A stretch of 64,000 bases of DNA from Eledone cirrhosa. Taxonomy: Eukaryota. Shown piece by piece: positions 1 to 54,910 of this stretch. Within the stretch, counting starts at the first letter, position 1; every line of letters begins with the position of its first letter. The position numbers and the translations under genes were made by a program. The notes below the pieces were generated by a model. It ran no database searches. It was given only the letters and a program-made list of their open reading frames with translations, and was not told where the DNA came from. The stretch is taken from the NCBI GenBank assembly GCA_964016885.1, contig OZ024742.1, positions 223,138,001-223,202,000 of the forward strand, read 5' to 3'.

Positions 1-3000
1 CTGCAACTCTCTTTAAAAGGTTACTGCCTCCGTCTACTACTCTATCACCATTACAGTTTAGAACGACAAAACTTCTTTTGAAGGAACGCGACACAAACTT
101 TGAAACCTAAGCAACACAACAACCATAGCTTTACTCTCTCCATCGCTCTTCCCTCTCTCTACAATAGATTATTCCCCCTCTCTATAATTTAACTGCTTTA
201 CTCTCTTCATGCTTCGAGGTTTAACACTAGCTTCACTCTATCCATCGCTCTTCTCTCTATATATATAATAGATCATTCCCCTTATTCGTTCGGGAACGCG
301 AAAAAAACTTTGATAACTAAGCAACACATCATTTTATACAACAAACAGTCATAACGACACTCATACATCAAATATCAAAATTTAAAAAGCCGATAACACT
401 AAATACATACTGCTCTCTCAATGTTACATTTTACACATTTACATTTTACATCAAATAACAATTTAACTGCTTTACTCTCTCTGTCGCTCTTCACTCCCTA
501 TATGACAACACTGCAGAGAGAGAAACAATGTATATGATCAAATGGAGCCTTCTGTATATTCCACTTCTCTATAATTTAACTGCTTTACTCTCTCTGTCGC
601 TCTTCACTCCCTATATGACAACACTGCAGTGGAGCATTCTGTATTGACATACGGATTATCTGGGGCATTTTCAATCGGCTTATTGCAAATAACAACCCGC
701 AAAATAACACTTCATATAACAGATTAATGCTATAGACATATGAATTGGAATGCAACCTGTGAACTTTTTCCTGGGCAAAATTATTCAAACAGACATGACC
801 TCATTGCCAGAGTGTTCAGACTGAAACTGGCTAAACTCATGGCTTTAATCAAAAAGGTCAGGTATTTGGAGCAGTAAAATGTGACATGTTCACCGTCGAA
901 TGGCAAAAACAAGGGCTGCCACATGCTCACATTTTGATTTGGTTAGCTGATAAAATCAATTCAAATGCCATAGACAGCTTCATTTCGGCTGAAATCCCTA
1001 ACCCAGCAACTGACAAGGAATTACATGACATCGTCAAAGGTAACATGATTCATGGTCTGTGTGCATTGAGTCTTAATGAGCATCACACGTGTCCGAAAGA
1101 GGGGGGGGGGGTAGTGCAGTAAGGGATACCCCCCAAAATTTGTTGACCAGACTCAGACTGGTGGCGACGGGTACCCCCTGTACAGGCGGAGATGGCCCGA
1201 GAACGGTGGCTTCACCACAACAGTAAGGGGAGGTCAAGTCGACAATAGATGGGTGGTCCCTTACTGCCCGCTTCTCTTGAAGATGTTCAACGCCCACATC
1301 AACGTTGAGTTTTGCAACTCCATCAAGTCGATAAAATACATATGCAAATAAGGGCTCTGATGCCGCAATGTTCGCATTTCAAGCTGAAAATAGCAGGGAC
1401 GAGGTCACAGAATACCTGGCGGGGCGGTACATCAGTAGCAATCAAGCTTTTTGGCGCCTATTTGGTTTACTCCTACACCAACGTCACCCCGCCATCGTAC
1501 AGCTTGCGGTACATTTGGAAAATGGGCAAAGGGTTTACTTTACGGACCAAACCGCCACCAAGTTGGCCGCTGATCCGAAAGAGACCACTCTGACGGGTTT
1601 CTTCAAACTTTGCCAGTTTGATACATTTGCGCAAACAATTGTGTACCCCCAGGTTCCATCCTACTTTATATGGCCGAAATCCACTTGGGTGCGAAAAAAG
1701 TCAGGTCAAGCTGCTGAAAGACATCCTGGTGTAAAATTTGACAGCTGTCTTGGAAGGGTTTACACTGTGCCCCCAAGTCAGCATGAGTGCTTTCATCTCC
1801 GCCTTCTTCTGCATGAAGTTGTAGGCCCACAAAGTTTTCAGGACCTCAAAACTGTTGATGGAGAAATAAGTGATACGTACCGGGAAGCCTGCTTTAAGCG
1901 TGGTTTTTTGGAAGATGATTCGCAATGGGATTCCACTTTAGCAGAGGGTGCTTTGTTGAAATCACCTAAAGGTCTACGGGAACTCTTTGCTATTTTGCTT
2001 CAAAAGTGTGAATTAGGTGATCCCAAATCTTTATGGGTCAAGTACAGAGACTTCATGTCTGAGGACTTCCTGTGCCTGGCTCATCTGCAGTATACTTCAG
2101 TGGAAGTTGGTTACAGCGACATTATCTACAACAGGGCACTCATTGATATCGAGGATACCCTCCTCGACATGGGTGGGAGTGAATTGGCGATGTATTGTTT
2201 GCCGTCAACCGTCAGAGAGGAAGCTAACACGTTGGCCCTGGATTTGTTGCGAGAAACAGCATATGACATCGAATCTCTTTCCCAATACTTAGAGGAAAAT
2301 GAGCCCAAACTTCTGTCGGACCAAAGGTTGGCCTATTTAATTATCATTGACGCGGTTCAAAATCAGACTGGGGGTATTTACTTTCTCGGTGCTCCTGGGG
2401 GTACCGGAAAAACTTATGTAACGAAATTGATTCTCGCTAAGATTCTTCAGGAGAAAAAAATTGCGTTGGCCGTTGCATCGTAAGGAATCGCTGCTACTTT
2501 GCTGCCGGGAGGCAGGACAGCACATTCAACCTTTAAACTCCCCTCGGATTTAGTAAAAACTGAGACACCAACATGCAATATCAGCAAGAGTTCACACGAA
2601 GCTCTGGTTCTCAAAAAATGTTGCCTCATTGTTTGGGATGAGTGCACAATGGCACACAAGAGTGCCCTTGAGGCATTGGACAGGTCCCTGAAAGACATTA
2701 GGGATTCTACGGCTCCTATGGGTGGCGTAACCCTTCTGCTATCATTTGATTTTTGGCAAACGCTGCCTGACATCCCCAAAGGAACAAGAGCTGATGAAAT
2801 GCGTGCATGTCTTAAGCCGTGCATGTTGTAGCTCCAGGTGAAGAGTTTGTACCCGAGCACAAATATGCGTGCTCATTTGCATGGTGACAACATGTCTGCA
2901 GCATTTGCTCAGAATATTTTAGCACTTGGTGAGGGCAAGGTCCCTGCGGATGACAAGGGCGGCATAGCAATCGACTCCCTGTGCAACATTGTGAGCAGCC

Positions 3001-3981
3001 CTTCTGACCTTTGGGAAGCAGTGTTTCCTAATGTCTCATCTAACTTTAAAAAGCTCGATTGGCTCAGCGAAAGAGCCATCCTTGCTCCGAAAAATACCAT
3101 GGTTAATTTTATTAACGAGCAGCTGATTTAGAAAATTCCCGGTAAAGAACACATCTTCAAATCTATCGACCGGACGTCAGACTCCGAAGATATCGTTAAT
3201 TATCCGGTTGAGTTATTAAATTCCCTTGAGCTTCCAGGGCTCCCACCTCACATTCTTAAGCTTAAGGTTGGCTGTCCCATTATGCTAATAAGGACCTTGC
3301 GTCCACCAAAGCAGTGCAACGGTACTCGCATGGTCATCAAGTCACTGACGCCCCACTTGATTGAGGCCACCATTGTAGCGGGGTGCGAGAGAGGGGAGAA
3401 TGTTTTCATTCCAAGGATGAACCTTTTCCCCTCGGCGTCAGATATCCTGTTCGATTTCCGGCGATCCCAATTTCCGGTGAGACCATGTTTTGCCATGTCC
3501 ATTAACAAGTCACAAGGGCAAACATTGTCGGTGGCGGGCATCCATTTGGGGGAGCCATGCTTCTCCCATGGCCAACTTTATGTTGCCTGTTCCTGCGTAG
3601 GGAGCAGGAATGGACTTTTTGCTTACACTCCTCAAGGGATGACACGCAATATCGTCTATAAAGAGGTGTTATAGATGTTGGTGCAGGTGTTGGAGGTATG
3701 CCATCTGGAAAACTGGTAGGGTCACCCATAGCGGACATATCTGACACCCAGCGGCATCAGGGCCACCATCTTGCAACTTTGGTCTACTAAATTTGCTATT
3801 GGAAGATTATTAACCCATCATTGATTGTCCAACATGCTAATTGGTTCATAACTATTAATAACCGGTTCAACTGCTTTATGCACTTAATTGATAAGCTTAT
3901 GCGCTTTCAAGCTACGTTTATCTGTTTGTAACTTTTCATAGCAAATGAACACACCTGAGCAACGCCGGGCTAAACTGCTAG
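1..3981 (+). mobile_element. Helitron, decayed; 5' end not seen in window
   Basis: Rep and Pif1-helicase coding remnants. Canonical 3' end: GC-rich hairpin cctgagcaacgccggg (3954-3969), then CTAG at 3978-3981 followed by host T. Short internal direct repeats in 1-630. Confidence 0.92.
790..3674 (+). pseudogene. Helitron Rep/Helicase (RepHel) pseudogene with stops and frameshifts
   Basis: RHDLIARVF (~792), HUH motif VEWQKQGLPHAHILIW (886-), KYICK remnant (~1335), Walker A GAPGGTGKT, Walker B IVWDECTM, QFPVRPCFAMSINKSQGQTL and FSHGQLYVACS. Split over ORFs 886-1122, 1368-2483, 2499-2831, 2838-3131 and 3282-3674. Confidence 0.95.
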
Positions 3982-14181: not shown

Positions 14182-14897
14182 TGTAAAGGACAGTTATAAA
14201 TAAATAAAGACGAAGAAAAACGAAGAGAAAAAAAAGGAAAGTGTATAGTGCTAAGGACGAAGAGAAGAAGAAAGAGAGTGTATAGTGCTAAGGACAGTTA
14301 GAGAAGAAGATGAAGAGATGTATGTAAAAAGAAAAACAACAGAGCGAGATAGAGAGAGAAGGAGATATGGGAGAGAGAAATATATTGAGGAAGTGAAAAA
14401 TGGTAGGCAGCTTGGGGACAGATGATCAGCGTACAAGTGAGAGGTTAAGGAGGGAAGGGATACAGCTAAAACAGCCGACACATAAATCCCGTCAAGTGTA
14501 GAGGAGAAAAAGAAAGAAAAATGATATATTTAAAATATTGTCTCATCCATTTGAATCATCAATTTTTATGAATTAGGTATTTTCTTCGTCTTTATTTATT
14601 TATAACTGTCCTTTACAGTTTCACTACCAAATCAACTTTTTAAATGGAAGTTGCATTATTTTAAGGTATGTCAAATTTATTTATAAAACGGCTTATATAT
14701 TGTATTTTGTCTGAAGAAGGCATACCATATTTTTAATATGATATCCCAGAAATATATATAATGAAATAAATATGGTTTTATAAATATAGTTTCCATTTGT
14801 TTAATACCGTAAACCTACTCCAAAACTTGTTGAGTGCTTTTATATCAGTTATAAAATATTTACTCGTAACCCAACAATTTTAAATAAAACTTTTGCA
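14182..14897 (+). mobile_element. Putative Penelope-like (PLE) non-coding element: 38-bp inverted repeat plus hammerhead
   Basis: IR arms 14182-14219 and 14580-14617; hammerhead motif at 14703-14768; (TA)n on both flanks. Confidence 0.6.
14703..14768 (+). ncRNA. Type I hammerhead ribozyme motif (somewhat degenerate)
   Basis: tattttgt-CTGAAGA-[aggcataccatatt ttt aatatgatatccca]-GAAA-t-atat-a-TA-atgaaata. Stem I is 8 bp with 2 GU pairs, stem II 11/14 paired, stem III palindromic, AUA triplet. Confidence 0.65.
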
Positions 14898-50498: not shown

Positions 50499-50546
<48 letters not shown>

Positions 50547-50978
50547 GGAGGTGAGTTTTATTGTAGTATAAAAACTATCTCTTTCTCTCTATCACCCATC
50601 TCTCCCTCTCCACCTTCACTCTCATCTCCTCCCCCCTTTTTTCATCCCCCCCCCCCTAAATAAAACATTTTTTTTTTTTCCTCGCACATATCCTCCCTTC
50701 GTTAATTTTCAAAATTTTTAATTTATACATTATCTTCCAACGGCTTTCAACCTCTCTATATAAAACAATATATCTCCTCTCAGTTATAAAAACTATCTCT
50801 TTCTCTCTATCACCCATCTCTCCCTCTCATCTCCTTCCCTTTTCATCCTTTCCACCCCCCTCTCTCTAAATAAAATATTTTTCCCAATATCACACATCAA
50901 TCTAAAACCACTTTTCATATGTTGATTTAAAACTGCACTATCCACAAGTGTTTTTTAGCCTTCATATCATGTTCTCCT

Positions 50979-51047
50979 GTTTTATCTGATGAAAACACAA
51001 ATATTATTGCATGATGATGTTTGTTTTTGAAATGCGCATAATAAAAT
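50979..51047 (+). ncRNA. Type I hammerhead ribozyme motif
   Basis: gttttat-CTGATGA-[aaacacaaatattatt gcat gatgatgtttgttttt]-GAAA-t-gcgc-a-TA-ataaaat. Stem I 7 bp, stem II 15/16 paired, palindromic stem III atgcgcat. Confidence 0.8.
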
Positions 51048-51078
51048 ACATGGAACTCCTTTAACCATCTTTTGATCT

Positions 51079-51144
<66 letters not shown>

Positions 51145-51303
51145 TCAACACACTGCAAATGTAGTTGGCGCTAGGAAGGGCATCGAGCCATAGAAAACCA
51201 GCCAGAAACACTCCTATTTGAGCGAGACATGGTCACCCAACCCAACTTGCCTCTAAATGGCACAAACCCATCTAGCCCACGATACCGACGTTAATCGATG
51301 ATG

Positions 51304-51346
<43 letters not shown>

Positions 51347-51352
<6 letters not shown>

Positions 51353-52071
51353 GGAATAGAATGAAACAAAATTTCATTTCTCACTCTTCATATGGCAGTT
51401 ACTTAAATGTAAGTATGTATGTAGTATACATACTTACATACATATATGTATACAGACGTGCAGTAGTATGTATATATATATACATACATGTTTACAAACA
51501 AACCGAACATTATAATAAATGTTCGGTAAACCGATACATGCATATATATATGTGTGCATGTATGTATATATATACATACTACTGTACGTCTGTATACATA
51601 TATGTATGTACGTATACATGCATACATACTTACATTTAAGTAAGTGCCGTACTAAGAGTGAGAAATGAAATTTTGTTTCATTCTATTCCATTTATCGTTT
51701 TCGGTGCACCCGGCTGACTGAACTCACTCGATATGCAAATTAGGCTACTCAGCCGTTAATATGCATAAGGAAAGTATATACTTTCAGACGTTCAACCATC
51801 TGGCAGGAAGGTATACGATGCTGACGATAGCTAATAAGCTTGAAACTAGTACATCGTTCCTGTGTCAGTGTTGAACAAAAAGGTGACGTGGTTGCCTAAA
51901 CACTGTACGGTGTAATTCAGGCTGTTTGTTTGTTTACAAACAAACCGAGCATTATAATAAATGTTCGGTAAACCGATACGTGCATATATATATATGTGTG
52001 CATGTATGTATATATATACATACTACTGTACGTTTGTATACATATATGTATGTACGTATACATACATACTT
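51347..52071 (+). mobile_element. Penelope-like pseudo-LTR/retrozyme-like element: inverted arm, 442-nt monomer with hammerhead, then partial direct repeat
   Basis: IR arms ~51347-51490 and ~51557-51695; direct repeat 51489-51631 vs 51931-52071; hammerhead at 51815-51857; starts in (TA)n. Confidence 0.75.
51815..51857 (+). ncRNA. Minimal type I hammerhead ribozyme motif
   Basis: acgatg-CTGACGA-t-agc-taataa-gct-t-GAAA-c-ta-g-TA-catcgt. Perfect 6-bp stem I, palindromic stem III (actagt), predicted cleavage after GUA at 51851. Confidence 0.85.
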
Positions 52072-52081
52072 ATATATATCC

Positions 52082-54910
52082 TCATCATCATCATCGTTTA
52101 ACGTCCATCTTCCACGCTTGCATGGGTTTGGACGGGAGTTTTCCCACTTGAGGCAAGATTTGTTGTCCTGCTCGTATAGGACTGTCTGGCGGGTTTTCTA
52201 CGGCTGGATGCCCTTCCTAACACCAACCACGTTTACAGTGTGGACTGGGAGGTTTTTACCGTGTTACCTACACGGTCACATTACAGCGTGGACTGTGTTT
52301 TTTTGTCGTGACACCTACACGACCTCATTTGTTTCGGACTGGATGTTGTGGTACCAACATAACTTCACATTTAAGGGGGTGGTGTGGATGGGGTGGGGGT
52401 AGTGGAATGGGGGTGTATTTTGTTAGAGGTGCCTACTGACTGTAGGTTTCGCTTTGTACTTAGGCAAGGCGGGTCTTCTGTATGACTGTGTAGCGCCAAA
52501 GATCTCGGTCCAGTGACATTGTCTTGGAGAGGTGTAAGTGTGTGAGGTCGGAATTTATCAAGTCGTCCCAGGTTTTTCTGGGTCTGCCTACTCCGTGGCT
52601 ACCATTTTTTTTTTATCGCCCTGCACTTTTTTATACAGCTGTCGTCTTTCATGCGCATCACGTGACCGTACCAACGTAGTCTTCTCTCGAGTAAACAACA
52701 TCTGATCACTCTTATTCCTAATTTCTCCTTTAGTTCGTTTATGCTTTGCCGTTCACGTGTATTACTATTACACATCCAGCGGAGCATGCAAGCTTTGTTT
52801 CTCTCCAGTCTGCGTATATCCTCTGCACACAATGCCCAGGTCTCACTGCCATGCAACATTGCTGTTCGTATGCAGGCATCATACAGCCTGCATTTCATTT
52901 TTAGAGAGAACCCTTTAGCGGCCAATAGTGGTATAAGCTCTCTGAACTTTTTCCATCCCATTCTGACTCTAGCTACTGTACTTTCAGAGCACCCTCCCCC
53001 ACTGTTGATTTTGTCACCCAGGTAACGGAAGGTGTCCACTATTTCTATAGAACCATCTGTGCAATGGAATGAGCTAGTATTCTGTGGGCACTTGCTGCTA
53101 CTTATTGCACCAGAGCACCGGCCACATATAAAATCTATATTCTTAGTTAGCTTACCTGTGATCCCACTACATCTTTTATGCACCCATACTTTGCATTTGG
53201 GACATAAAATGCCTACTCCTTTCCTACACACTGAGCATGGCCATTTCCCAGATGGGACCGGTGCCCTATTTTCCTTCCTACAAACTAGAACTTTAGTCTT
53301 AGACAAGTTAACTTTAAGGCCTTTTGATTCTAGGCCATGCTTCCATGTTTGGAATTTCTTCTCTAGTTCAGCCATTGATCCAGCTATGAGCGTTAGATCA
53401 TCTGCATATAGGAGTTCCCATGGGCAGCAAGTCTTGAACTCTTCTGTTATAGCCTGAAGGGCAATAATAAATAGTAGGGGGCTAATAACGGAGCCCTGAT
53501 GAACACCAACTTTTACGCTAAACTCTTCACTATATTCGTTGTTAATTCTAACCTTGCTGACTGTTTCTTTATACATGGCTTGTATAGCTCTCACAAGCCA
53601 TTCATCAACACCTAGTTTTCTAAGCGCCCACCAGATAATGGAGCGGGGGACTCTGTCAAAGGCTTTCTCCAAGTCAACAAAAGCTAAGTATAGGGGTTTA
53701 CTTTTAGCTAGGTACTTCTCCTGTAGTTGTCGTACAATGAAAAGAGCGTCTGTGGTACTTTTACCTGACACAAACCCGAACTGCATTTCATCTAGATCAA
53801 TTCGTTCTCTGATTAGTTGCGCTATTACTTTTTCTGTGACCTTCATGACCTGGTCGATTAATTTAATGCCTCTATAGTTACCCCTATCAAGAGCATCTCC
53901 TTTATCCTTGTAGCTGTTAATGATGTTGCTGCTACGCCAGTCCTTCGGAACGGTCCCATTCTGTATGACTTGGTTTACTATCCGGGTGACCATAGTGTGT
54001 CCCACCGTTCCAGATGCTTTCAGCATTTCAGCAACTATTTCCGAAGGCCCAGCCGCCTTACCCGTCTTCATATCTTTGATTGCCTTACTTATTATACTAC
54101 CTTCAACTAGCACTGCTGGTCCCTCTATTGGATCGATGTGGGGGAGACTGTCTTTCTCCCATTTATTCTCCTCATTTAGTAGCCTTTCGTAGTGACACTT
54201 CTCAGCTACCTTCTTATCAGCGTCAGTGATGGCAAGTACACCATCATCATTAAGGACACACTTCTCCCCGACAATATCATGGTTTTCCTTGACACATTGC
54301 CTAGCAATCCTGAACACCTCACGTTTTTGGTCCTCGCGTTGTAGAACATGCTTGAACTTTCTTTCCTCTGCTTCCCTTCTTGCGAAGTACACTTGTCTCC
54401 TAGCTTCCCTCCTGGCCACTTGATAGTCTTCTCTACTTTCCCCATCCCGCCATACTTTCCAAGCCTGCTTTTTGGCCTTAATTGACTCCTCCACCTTACT
54501 GTTCCACCACCACGTTACTCTCCTCCTGCCTATAGGCCTGCTCCAGCCACATACATCATCTGCCGCCTTCAGCAGGTTAGCTTTCAGGAATTCCCACTGT
54601 TCCTCTATATTGTACGACTCTAATTGCTCTTCCTTACTGTCGAAAGCATCAAGTAATATGCTTTTAAATTTATTACTGGCTGTAGGGTCCTCTAGCTTCC
54701 ATATTTTTCTCCTGAGGATAGTCCTCTTCTGCGAGTACGTCTTGTCCTGACTATGAGGTCGCTGACTATGAGTCAATGTTGAGAGGTGTGCATTCTTCAT
54801 GGGGGAGGGATTTAGTGTTTACAACAGACACTCTGTCACGTCTTCTGGTAAGGATATAATCTATCTGACTGTCGTGTTCCCCTGATCTATAGGTGATCAA
54901 GTGATTGTCT
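52082..54910 (-). mobile_element. RTE-clade LINE, 5'-truncated (~2.8 kb)
   Basis: End of APE endonuclease (SQIDYIL), full RT domain, 3' UTR and (GAT)n tail at 52082-52096. Confidence 0.95.
52599..54800 (-). pseudogene. LINE ORF2 remnant: reverse transcriptase plus C4HC3 PHD-like finger (733-aa open frame, frameshifted at both ends)
   Basis: NYRGIKL, QFGF, FVDLEKAFDRV, GVHQGSVISPLLF, LLYADD, FRYLG; CSVC..CPKC..H..C..CGRC. Confidence 0.93.

Follow-up and report, generated by a model that had tools for sequence, protein, structure and literature searches.

The window analysed here is a stretch of 64,000 nucleotides from Eledone cirrhosa (contig OZ024742.1, positions 223,138,001 to 223,202,000, forward strand). 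At 51347-52071 it contains an ORF-less insertion of 725 nt with TA runs on both sides. The insertion is built from an inverted arm of 144 nt, a single full unit of 442 nt, and 141 nt of a second, partial unit. The inverted and direct arms overlap by 2 nt where they meet, at 51489-51490. The features are as follows.

51306..51346, no strand: left (TA)n target flank (sequence).
51347..51490, minus strand: inverted arm, unit positions 69-207, with the "long" 3' end and its tail at 51347 (alignment).
51489..51930, plus strand: full 442-nt unit, 36% G+C, without a real ORF (alignment and repeat comparison).
51502..51527, plus strand: 10-bp hairpin, present in every unit and again at 51944-51969 (sequence and other loci).
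51639..51695, plus strand: tail segment, which runs from the family's short 3' end (~position 150) to its long one (position 207) (copy comparison).
51815..51857, plus strand: type I hammerhead motif, with the predicted cut between 51851 and 51852 (motif scan and conservation).
51931..52071, plus strand: partial second unit, tail-less, ending in the "short" 3' end (alignment).
52072..52079, no strand: right (TA)4 target flank (sequence).

The original prediction described a non-coding unit whose first ~140 nt recur 442 nt later and which is preceded by an inverted copy of ~140 nt. Both repeats are confirmed: 51489-51628 and 51931-52072 are 95% identical at an offset of 442, and 51347-51490 mirrors 51557-51695. 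The unit is indeed non-coding, in that the longest ATG frame of the insertion has 92 aa of low complexity, and the ORF list of the insertion holds no RT plus GIY-YIG ORF. The hairpin that had been placed between the arms is not a fold-back apex but a part of each unit, recurring at 51944-51969 and at other loci. Similarly, 51489 and 51930 are not the biological ends, since the 3' ends of the family lie at unit position 207 or at about 140-150. The window copy has a long end on the inverted arm and a short end on the direct arm, conforming to the one-tail rule described below.

Scanning both strands of the window for the motif gave three type I hammerhead candidates, one of which is that at 51815-51857, where all the parts described for it are present. 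The motif shows an open helix I of 6 bp, the type I core (CUGANGA, here CUGACGA, with GAAA and UH), helices I to III with a palindromic ACUAGU stem III, and GUA at 51849-51851. Stem II had been drawn with 3 bp and is better drawn with 4 bp (AGCU/AGCU, with an AAUA loop), closed by a U.U pair. Canonical metazoan type I hammerheads have a 6-bp helix I, a 4-bp helix II, and a palindromic helix III of 1-2 bp, and the "minimal" hammerhead of Penelope-like elements (PLEs) is the form without helix III and loop 3 (Cervera and de la Pena 2014, PMC4209133). The present motif, with its helix III palindrome, is accordingly of the canonical metazoan type by that definition and not minimal as first named. 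The G10.1-C11.1 pair at the base of helix II is not present in this family, which has U.U there, as does the hammerhead of one autonomous PLE family in this genome. The same U.U is found in the active axolotl HHR_Amex2 (PMC7229834) and hence lowers the predicted rate of cleavage without affecting type I membership. An Rfam search of the window at the gathering score gave 0 matches.

Nearest-neighbour folding puts a single motif at -1.7 kcal/mol in its active fold but at -8.5 in an inactive one, and the duplex of the stem III palindrome comes to -4.8 kcal/mol. These values predict that cleavage needs two motifs; self-cleavage would be expected in dimers, as for the axolotl retrozymes (PMC7229834). 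With its one hammerhead, the window copy would thus be unable to excise a circle by itself, and multimeric copies at other places would have to supply any circle joined at 51851/51852.

Several other elements lie in the window. The plus strand at 50546-51083 is the 3' stump of a different, autonomous PLE with a hammerhead-like motif at 50978-51048; a 29-nt inverted long end and a short end give this stump the one-tail layout too. A 33-nt stretch of that motif has 8,222 exact genome copies in a pattern search, and the element is linked elsewhere to GIY-YIG/RT-like ORFs. A third type I hammerhead-like motif, with a UAUAUA loop, is located at 14703-14768 on the plus strand, and motifs like it end a Nematis-like PLE family in loci L257-L272. 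On the minus strand, 13918-14068 matches the low-complexity end of the unit plus flank at 75% and is possibly an old fragment, and 52599-54818 holds a frame of 739 aa that matches RVT_1 (E 6e-32) and, weakly, a PHD finger; it belongs to a non-LTR retrotransposon that is not PLE-like. A short interspersed repeat forms an inverted pair of 86% identity on either side of the region (51149-51206 and 52185-52242). The broken frames at 1335-3674 on the plus strand resemble what we take to be a Helitron/PIF1 helicase.

The genome searched comprises 2,995,841,428 bases in 1,796 contigs. The 34-nt core has 23,085 exact matches in it and the reversed control has 0, so the sequence is not single-copy. A DNA search with 51690-51930 returned 2,222 first-look candidates, and the best 40 scored of these are 96-100% identical. 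Head-to-tail core pairs number 2,777 genome-wide at a spacing of about 418-446 nt, a range that leaves a longer-unit subfamily (460-540 nt) outside the count; the tandem copies proposed for the monomer are therefore real. With this copy number, these tandem pairs, and no ORF, the proposal of a non-autonomous, high-copy, hammerhead-bearing element holds. Arrays in the family range from 2 to more than 20 units. The window copy, with 1.3 units and one hammerhead, is not an "active" retrozyme in the sense of Li 2026 (at least two consecutive complete hammerheads), whereas 15 of the 55 loci taken in positional order along contig C1 carry at least two hammerheads in one arm and are.

To follow the core across copies, we used a flanking pattern that leaves 31 core positions free; it has 23,203 genome matches, the first 100 listed of which were inspected by hand. 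Catalytic positions are changed in 6 of these 100, all by different single changes, and the variants shared between copies are at N7, in loop II, and in one stem I pair, for which the hand count gave A-U 8, G.U 41, U.G 49, and U.U 2. In contigs of run X1, which is of unrecorded kind and possibly of the same source as the assembly, differences above 10% inside 51815-51857 occur, among the rows listed, only at 51818, 51825, 51835, and 51854. Two further contig runs compared for sequence variation, X5 and X6, are of low depth and carry no weight as signs of other hosts. The core is thus conserved among the genomic copies inspected, with shared variants avoiding the catalytic positions. Selection on source elements would be expected to result in such sparing, though the events are few; the stem I pair switch arose once or twice and was passed on to many copies.

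The identity between units differs among arrays. We compared 16 dispersed arrays with at least two complete units: 9 are at no more than 3 substitutions, 3 at 5-8, and 4 at 12-42. Locus L221 has 7 units over two arms with 0-1 differences between units, and in L111, L149, and L221, where the PLE ends of both arms are intact, 5-9 units are nearly identical. Three long arrays (L225, L228, and L229) are heterogeneous; higher-order repeats of 4-mers and 6-mers are clear in two of them, which shows that arrays also expand at the DNA level. Family arrays spanning 10-20 kb have turned into satellites in L225-L229 (C1 about 51.77, 53.36, and 70.05 Mb). The units of L136, one of the 4 heterogeneous dispersed arrays, alternate ABAB; we rejected this array as proof of a dimeric circle, since long arrays carry higher-order repeats made at the DNA level. 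In 14 of 33 two-armed insertions with overlapping arms, the two arms are mutually closest, and in 21 they fall within the best tenth. The young arrays are most simply read as one RNA unit copied over and over, for which a circle is the known means (PMC7229834); copying from linear multimers or via template jumps may also account for them.

These arrays bear on a different account, in which the units are 5'-truncated pseudo-LTR stumps left by a hypothetical autonomous PLE; unequal exchange would have multiplied them as a minisatellite, and they would have no RNA life cycle of their own. Li et al. 2026 discuss such a scenario, the neighbouring hammerhead at window 50978 belongs to just such a stump, and the 4-mer and 6-mer higher-order repeats of the long arrays are in line with it. 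However, none of the 127 loci surveyed (30 best matches, 55 chosen by the core, and 42 by the downstream pattern) continues upstream into shared ORF-bearing sequence; what lies upstream of a unit is another unit, an inverted arm, or flank. In addition, the multimers of identical units on both arms with intact long and short ends, as in L221 and L111, imply that multimers were present at insertion. We therefore regard amplified stumps as a highly improbable origin of the family.

The ends of the insertions show a PLE-type footprint. Of the non-edge insertions in the 127 loci, 62 have a single arm, 66 have two arms placed head to head, and 6 are complex. The 3' ends are of two kinds, "long" at unit position 207 or within a few bases before it and "short" at about 140-150, and the tail between them measures ~60 nt. 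TA repeats adjoin 74 of the 93 long ends and 63 of the 79 classified short ends, a count in which 24 short arms with earlier ends were left unclassified. The two-armed insertions of the 127 loci are 48 long+short, 8 short+short, and 0 long+long, after 10 of the 66 had been dropped for one unclassifiable end. Twenty extra loci added 7 long+short, 1 short+short, and 1 long+long, with one odd-ended and one three-armed insertion dropped. The total of 65, including two L140 insertions that are duplicates, is thus 55 long+short, 9 short+short, and 1 long+long, against 32, 20.5, and 12.5 expected for independent arms (chi-square 33.5, p 7e-9). Several of the short+short cases stop in an internal TA run and may have lost the tail later; one short+short case has a partial tail. 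The short arm is not always the shorter one, as copying of a folded-back first strand would have it; both orders were seen (L111 vs L149 and L207), and we rejected that rule. The one-tail layout is also found on autonomous PLE copies of this genome (L072; L244-L251). A tail on one of the inverted pseudo-LTRs has been described for PLEs (PMC3846280, PMC8557442), and the one-sided tail has been tied to two internal start sites of reverse transcription (PMC11167929). In L133, at a non-TA site, a 9-bp target duplication is readable, which is not the case inside TA runs; there the element lies antisense in a PLE ORF (L133 4166-6904), and the junction recurs mirrored in the same locus.

Fixed 3' ends, a tail on one arm, 5' truncation, an inverted arm, and an AT-rich target are all seen in this family, and the PLE-type layout of the original prediction, with variable 5' ends and a head-to-head arm, is borne out and extended by the one-tail rule. 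Inverted ends and TA flanks, together with the 0 Rfam matches, might also suggest a MITE or another DNA transposon, or a chance hairpin in microsatellite-rich DNA. In contrast, the length of the inverted arms varies, 62 of the 134 non-edge insertions have none, the copies are truncated at the 5' side, have tandem units, and end unequally, and the 23,085 exact cores stand against 0 for the reversed control. We give this explanation almost no weight, and a MITE or DNA transposon is already ruled out by the end structure.

The 5' ends are scattered. At the cut site (positions 359-367) we counted 5 of 101, with 3.3 expected (p 0.24), so that a pile-up of 5' ends there was rejected. The lack of an excess fits a ligated circle and fits an uncut RNA equally well, and it is one of the observations in favour of a PLE passenger copied from an uncut linear multimer, in which the hammerhead is kept for some other step or as a protein-binding fold, circles are not an intermediate, and tandem identity comes from young homogeneous source arrays or from template jumping. 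Unprocessed RNA is the dominant PLE substrate in vitro (PMC11167929), and the heterogeneous two-armed insertions L223 and L230 as well as the ABAB array L136 could be copies of linear transcripts of mixed arrays. However, the 5-9 units of L111, L149, and L221 are near-identical whereas the long arrays L225, L228, and L229 are heterogeneous, and the catalytic residues are spared in all sampled subfamilies. A linear template without circles thus appears unlikely to us, though it deserves some weight.

We searched for a helper PLE among 10,596 GIY-YIG candidates in the genome, 150 of which were scored; 50 GIY-YIG loci sort into 7 families with RT plus GIY-YIG. The clade names Neptune and Nematis are applied to the host families provisionally. 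Most of the 7 families have the CxxxxCxxC linker, as in the Neptune/Nematis clades (PMC8557442). The linkage to a PLE RT/GIY-YIG ORF that had been anticipated is not seen in the 50 loci, the Nematis-like fragments, or the 127 element loci: the PLEs of the 50 loci and the fragments share no detectable sequence with the unit, and no contiguous PLE ORF stands beside the element in the 127 loci. PLE protein matches occur in 2 of these 127, both away from the element. Separate insertions of the element lie in 3 of the 50 GIY-YIG loci. Three candidate links were rejected. A 55-nt likeness between the tail and the family C sequence that follows the hammerhead is weak (score 35, with a shuffle maximum of 31), and we do not count it as homology. 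In L133 the element is inserted into a PLE ORF, and in L228 it has entered a PLE 3' UTR at a TA run; that UTR bears a different hammerhead of its own. No PLE among the sampled families shares detectable sequence with the element, so it is the footprint only that points to a PLE helper.

Other elements of this genome carry related folds. L149 5600-8001 is a sister two-armed array without ORFs, made of identical 310-nt units of unrelated sequence, and its hammerhead has the same design (U.U, 4-bp stem II, AAUA loop). PLE 3' UTRs in L061/L062/L066/L069 and L075/L067/L039 contain hammerhead-like folds in which UUGAAAA replaces CUGANGA (a U3-A8 swap) and stem III is the palindrome ACCGGU.

Taken together, the genome holds multimers with intact cores, fixed paired ends, TA targets, and no ORF. 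Our favoured reading, in which we have reasonable confidence, is that the locus is a protein-free repeat copy with a conserved type I hammerhead, probably inserted in trans by a PLE RT-endonuclease from an RNA that was probably circular and self-cleaved. We infer dimeric self-cleavage, ligation of circles, target-primed reverse transcription by a PLE from two internal starts, and head-to-head joining of cDNAs. The cycle would begin with multimeric copies that have a hammerhead in every unit, as are present in the genome. By analogy with related retrozymes, their transcripts would cut themselves, mainly as hammerhead pairs because the stem III palindrome is too weak to fold alone, and the freed units of 420-540 nt would be closed into circles by a host ligase. 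The footprint suggests that a PLE protein would then nick a (TA)n site, and that reverse transcription would start inside the RNA at one of two fixed points ~60 nt apart and pass the hammerhead site, covering 0.3 to 9 units. In about half of the insertions, those with the two-armed footprint, both target ends would be extended, presumably one from each start point, and head-to-head joining of the two cDNAs would leave an inverted arm and exactly one tail. The window copy, a two-armed product with one hammerhead, would thus be a daughter copy, not one from which circles arise.

Folded as a circle, a natural 422-nt unit has 71% of its bases paired at -145 kcal/mol, against -98 +/- 6 for 40 shuffles (z -8), a score partly inflated because of self-complementary TA/TG runs. 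Against the proposed mechanism, only 1 of 9 predicted Xenopus dimers was cleaved in vitro (Li et al. 2026, 10.64898/2026.07.22.740005), and cleavage is dispensable for PLE insertion in vitro (Frangieh et al. 2024, PMC11167929). More tentatively, a pair of PLE proteins may extend both (TA)n cut ends from two starts ~60 nt apart while rolling round one self-cleaved RNA circle, a possibility that we hold to be somewhat short of probable. Two starts on one rolled circle would give two-armed insertions exactly one tail and identical units on both arms. If so, retrozyme circles would be tied directly to the PLE machinery, and the element would offer a natural 0.4-kb substrate for solving how PLEs finish insertion. 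The completion of PLE insertion and the formation of the inverted arm are open questions (PMC11167929, PMC3846280), and a young family with tens of thousands of copies, a strict one-tail rule, and identical units on both arms offers the in vitro PLE assay already in use a substrate of small size.

This class of element, its hammerhead, and its tail were known before, so the finding is more useful than surprising. The covered literature on retrozymes and hammerheads, octopus included, does not describe this family, and supplements, Repbase, or Dfam may hold it. The relevant passages of PMC7229834 and Li 2026, supplements apart, mention no cephalopod, and the word "ribozyme" is absent from the main text of the 2026 Octopus vulgaris repeat annotation. 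As in the endonuclease-bearing PLEs (PMC3846280, PMC8557442, PMC11167929), the insertions have a head-to-head inverted arm, a tail at one end, (TA)n or AT-rich targets, two fixed 3' end points, and a hammerhead at most a few hundred bases upstream of the 3' end. In contrast to them, there is no RT or GIY-YIG ORF, the unit is a closed repeat, and the tail has ~60 nt instead of 30-40. The non-autonomous Chlamys PLEs, such as MRC1 (Craig et al. 2021, PMC8557442), are likewise ORF-less passengers with pseudo-LTRs and head-to-tail multicopy arrangement. However, they resemble an autonomous partner at the 3' end and mostly have no canonical hammerheads, whereas the present family has a hammerhead and no sequence-sharing partner among the sampled PLE families.

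The closest likeness in design is to the metazoan non-LTR retrozymes (PMC7229834; Li, Clavereau, Pollet 2026), which are ORF-less tandem repeats of the 150-450-nt class with G+C under 45%, one type I hammerhead per unit, sizes from monomers to long multimers, and PLEs in the same genome. The weak palindromic helix III is found in axolotl HHR_Amex1 and the U.U at the base of helix II in HHR_Amex2 (PMC7229834). By this analogy, the element is likely a further family of the known animal non-LTR retrozymes, for which cutting and a circular RNA are predicted. Expression, cleavage, and circles have been demonstrated for published retrozymes (PMC7229834; Li 2026), whereas cleavage and circles are predictions for the present family. 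PLEs have been named candidate helpers of retrozymes from co-occurrence (PMC7229834) and from pseudo-LTR homology (Li 2026), and Li et al. 2026 (10.64898/2026.07.22.740005) argue that non-LTR retrozymes derive from PLEs; the homology to a PLE pseudo-LTR shown for Xenopus in that work was not found here. How animal retrozymes move is still a proposal, for which the footprint of this family provides an independent, countable line of evidence: unlike those of the published retrozyme families, its insertion ends can be counted, and they match the ends of PLEs.
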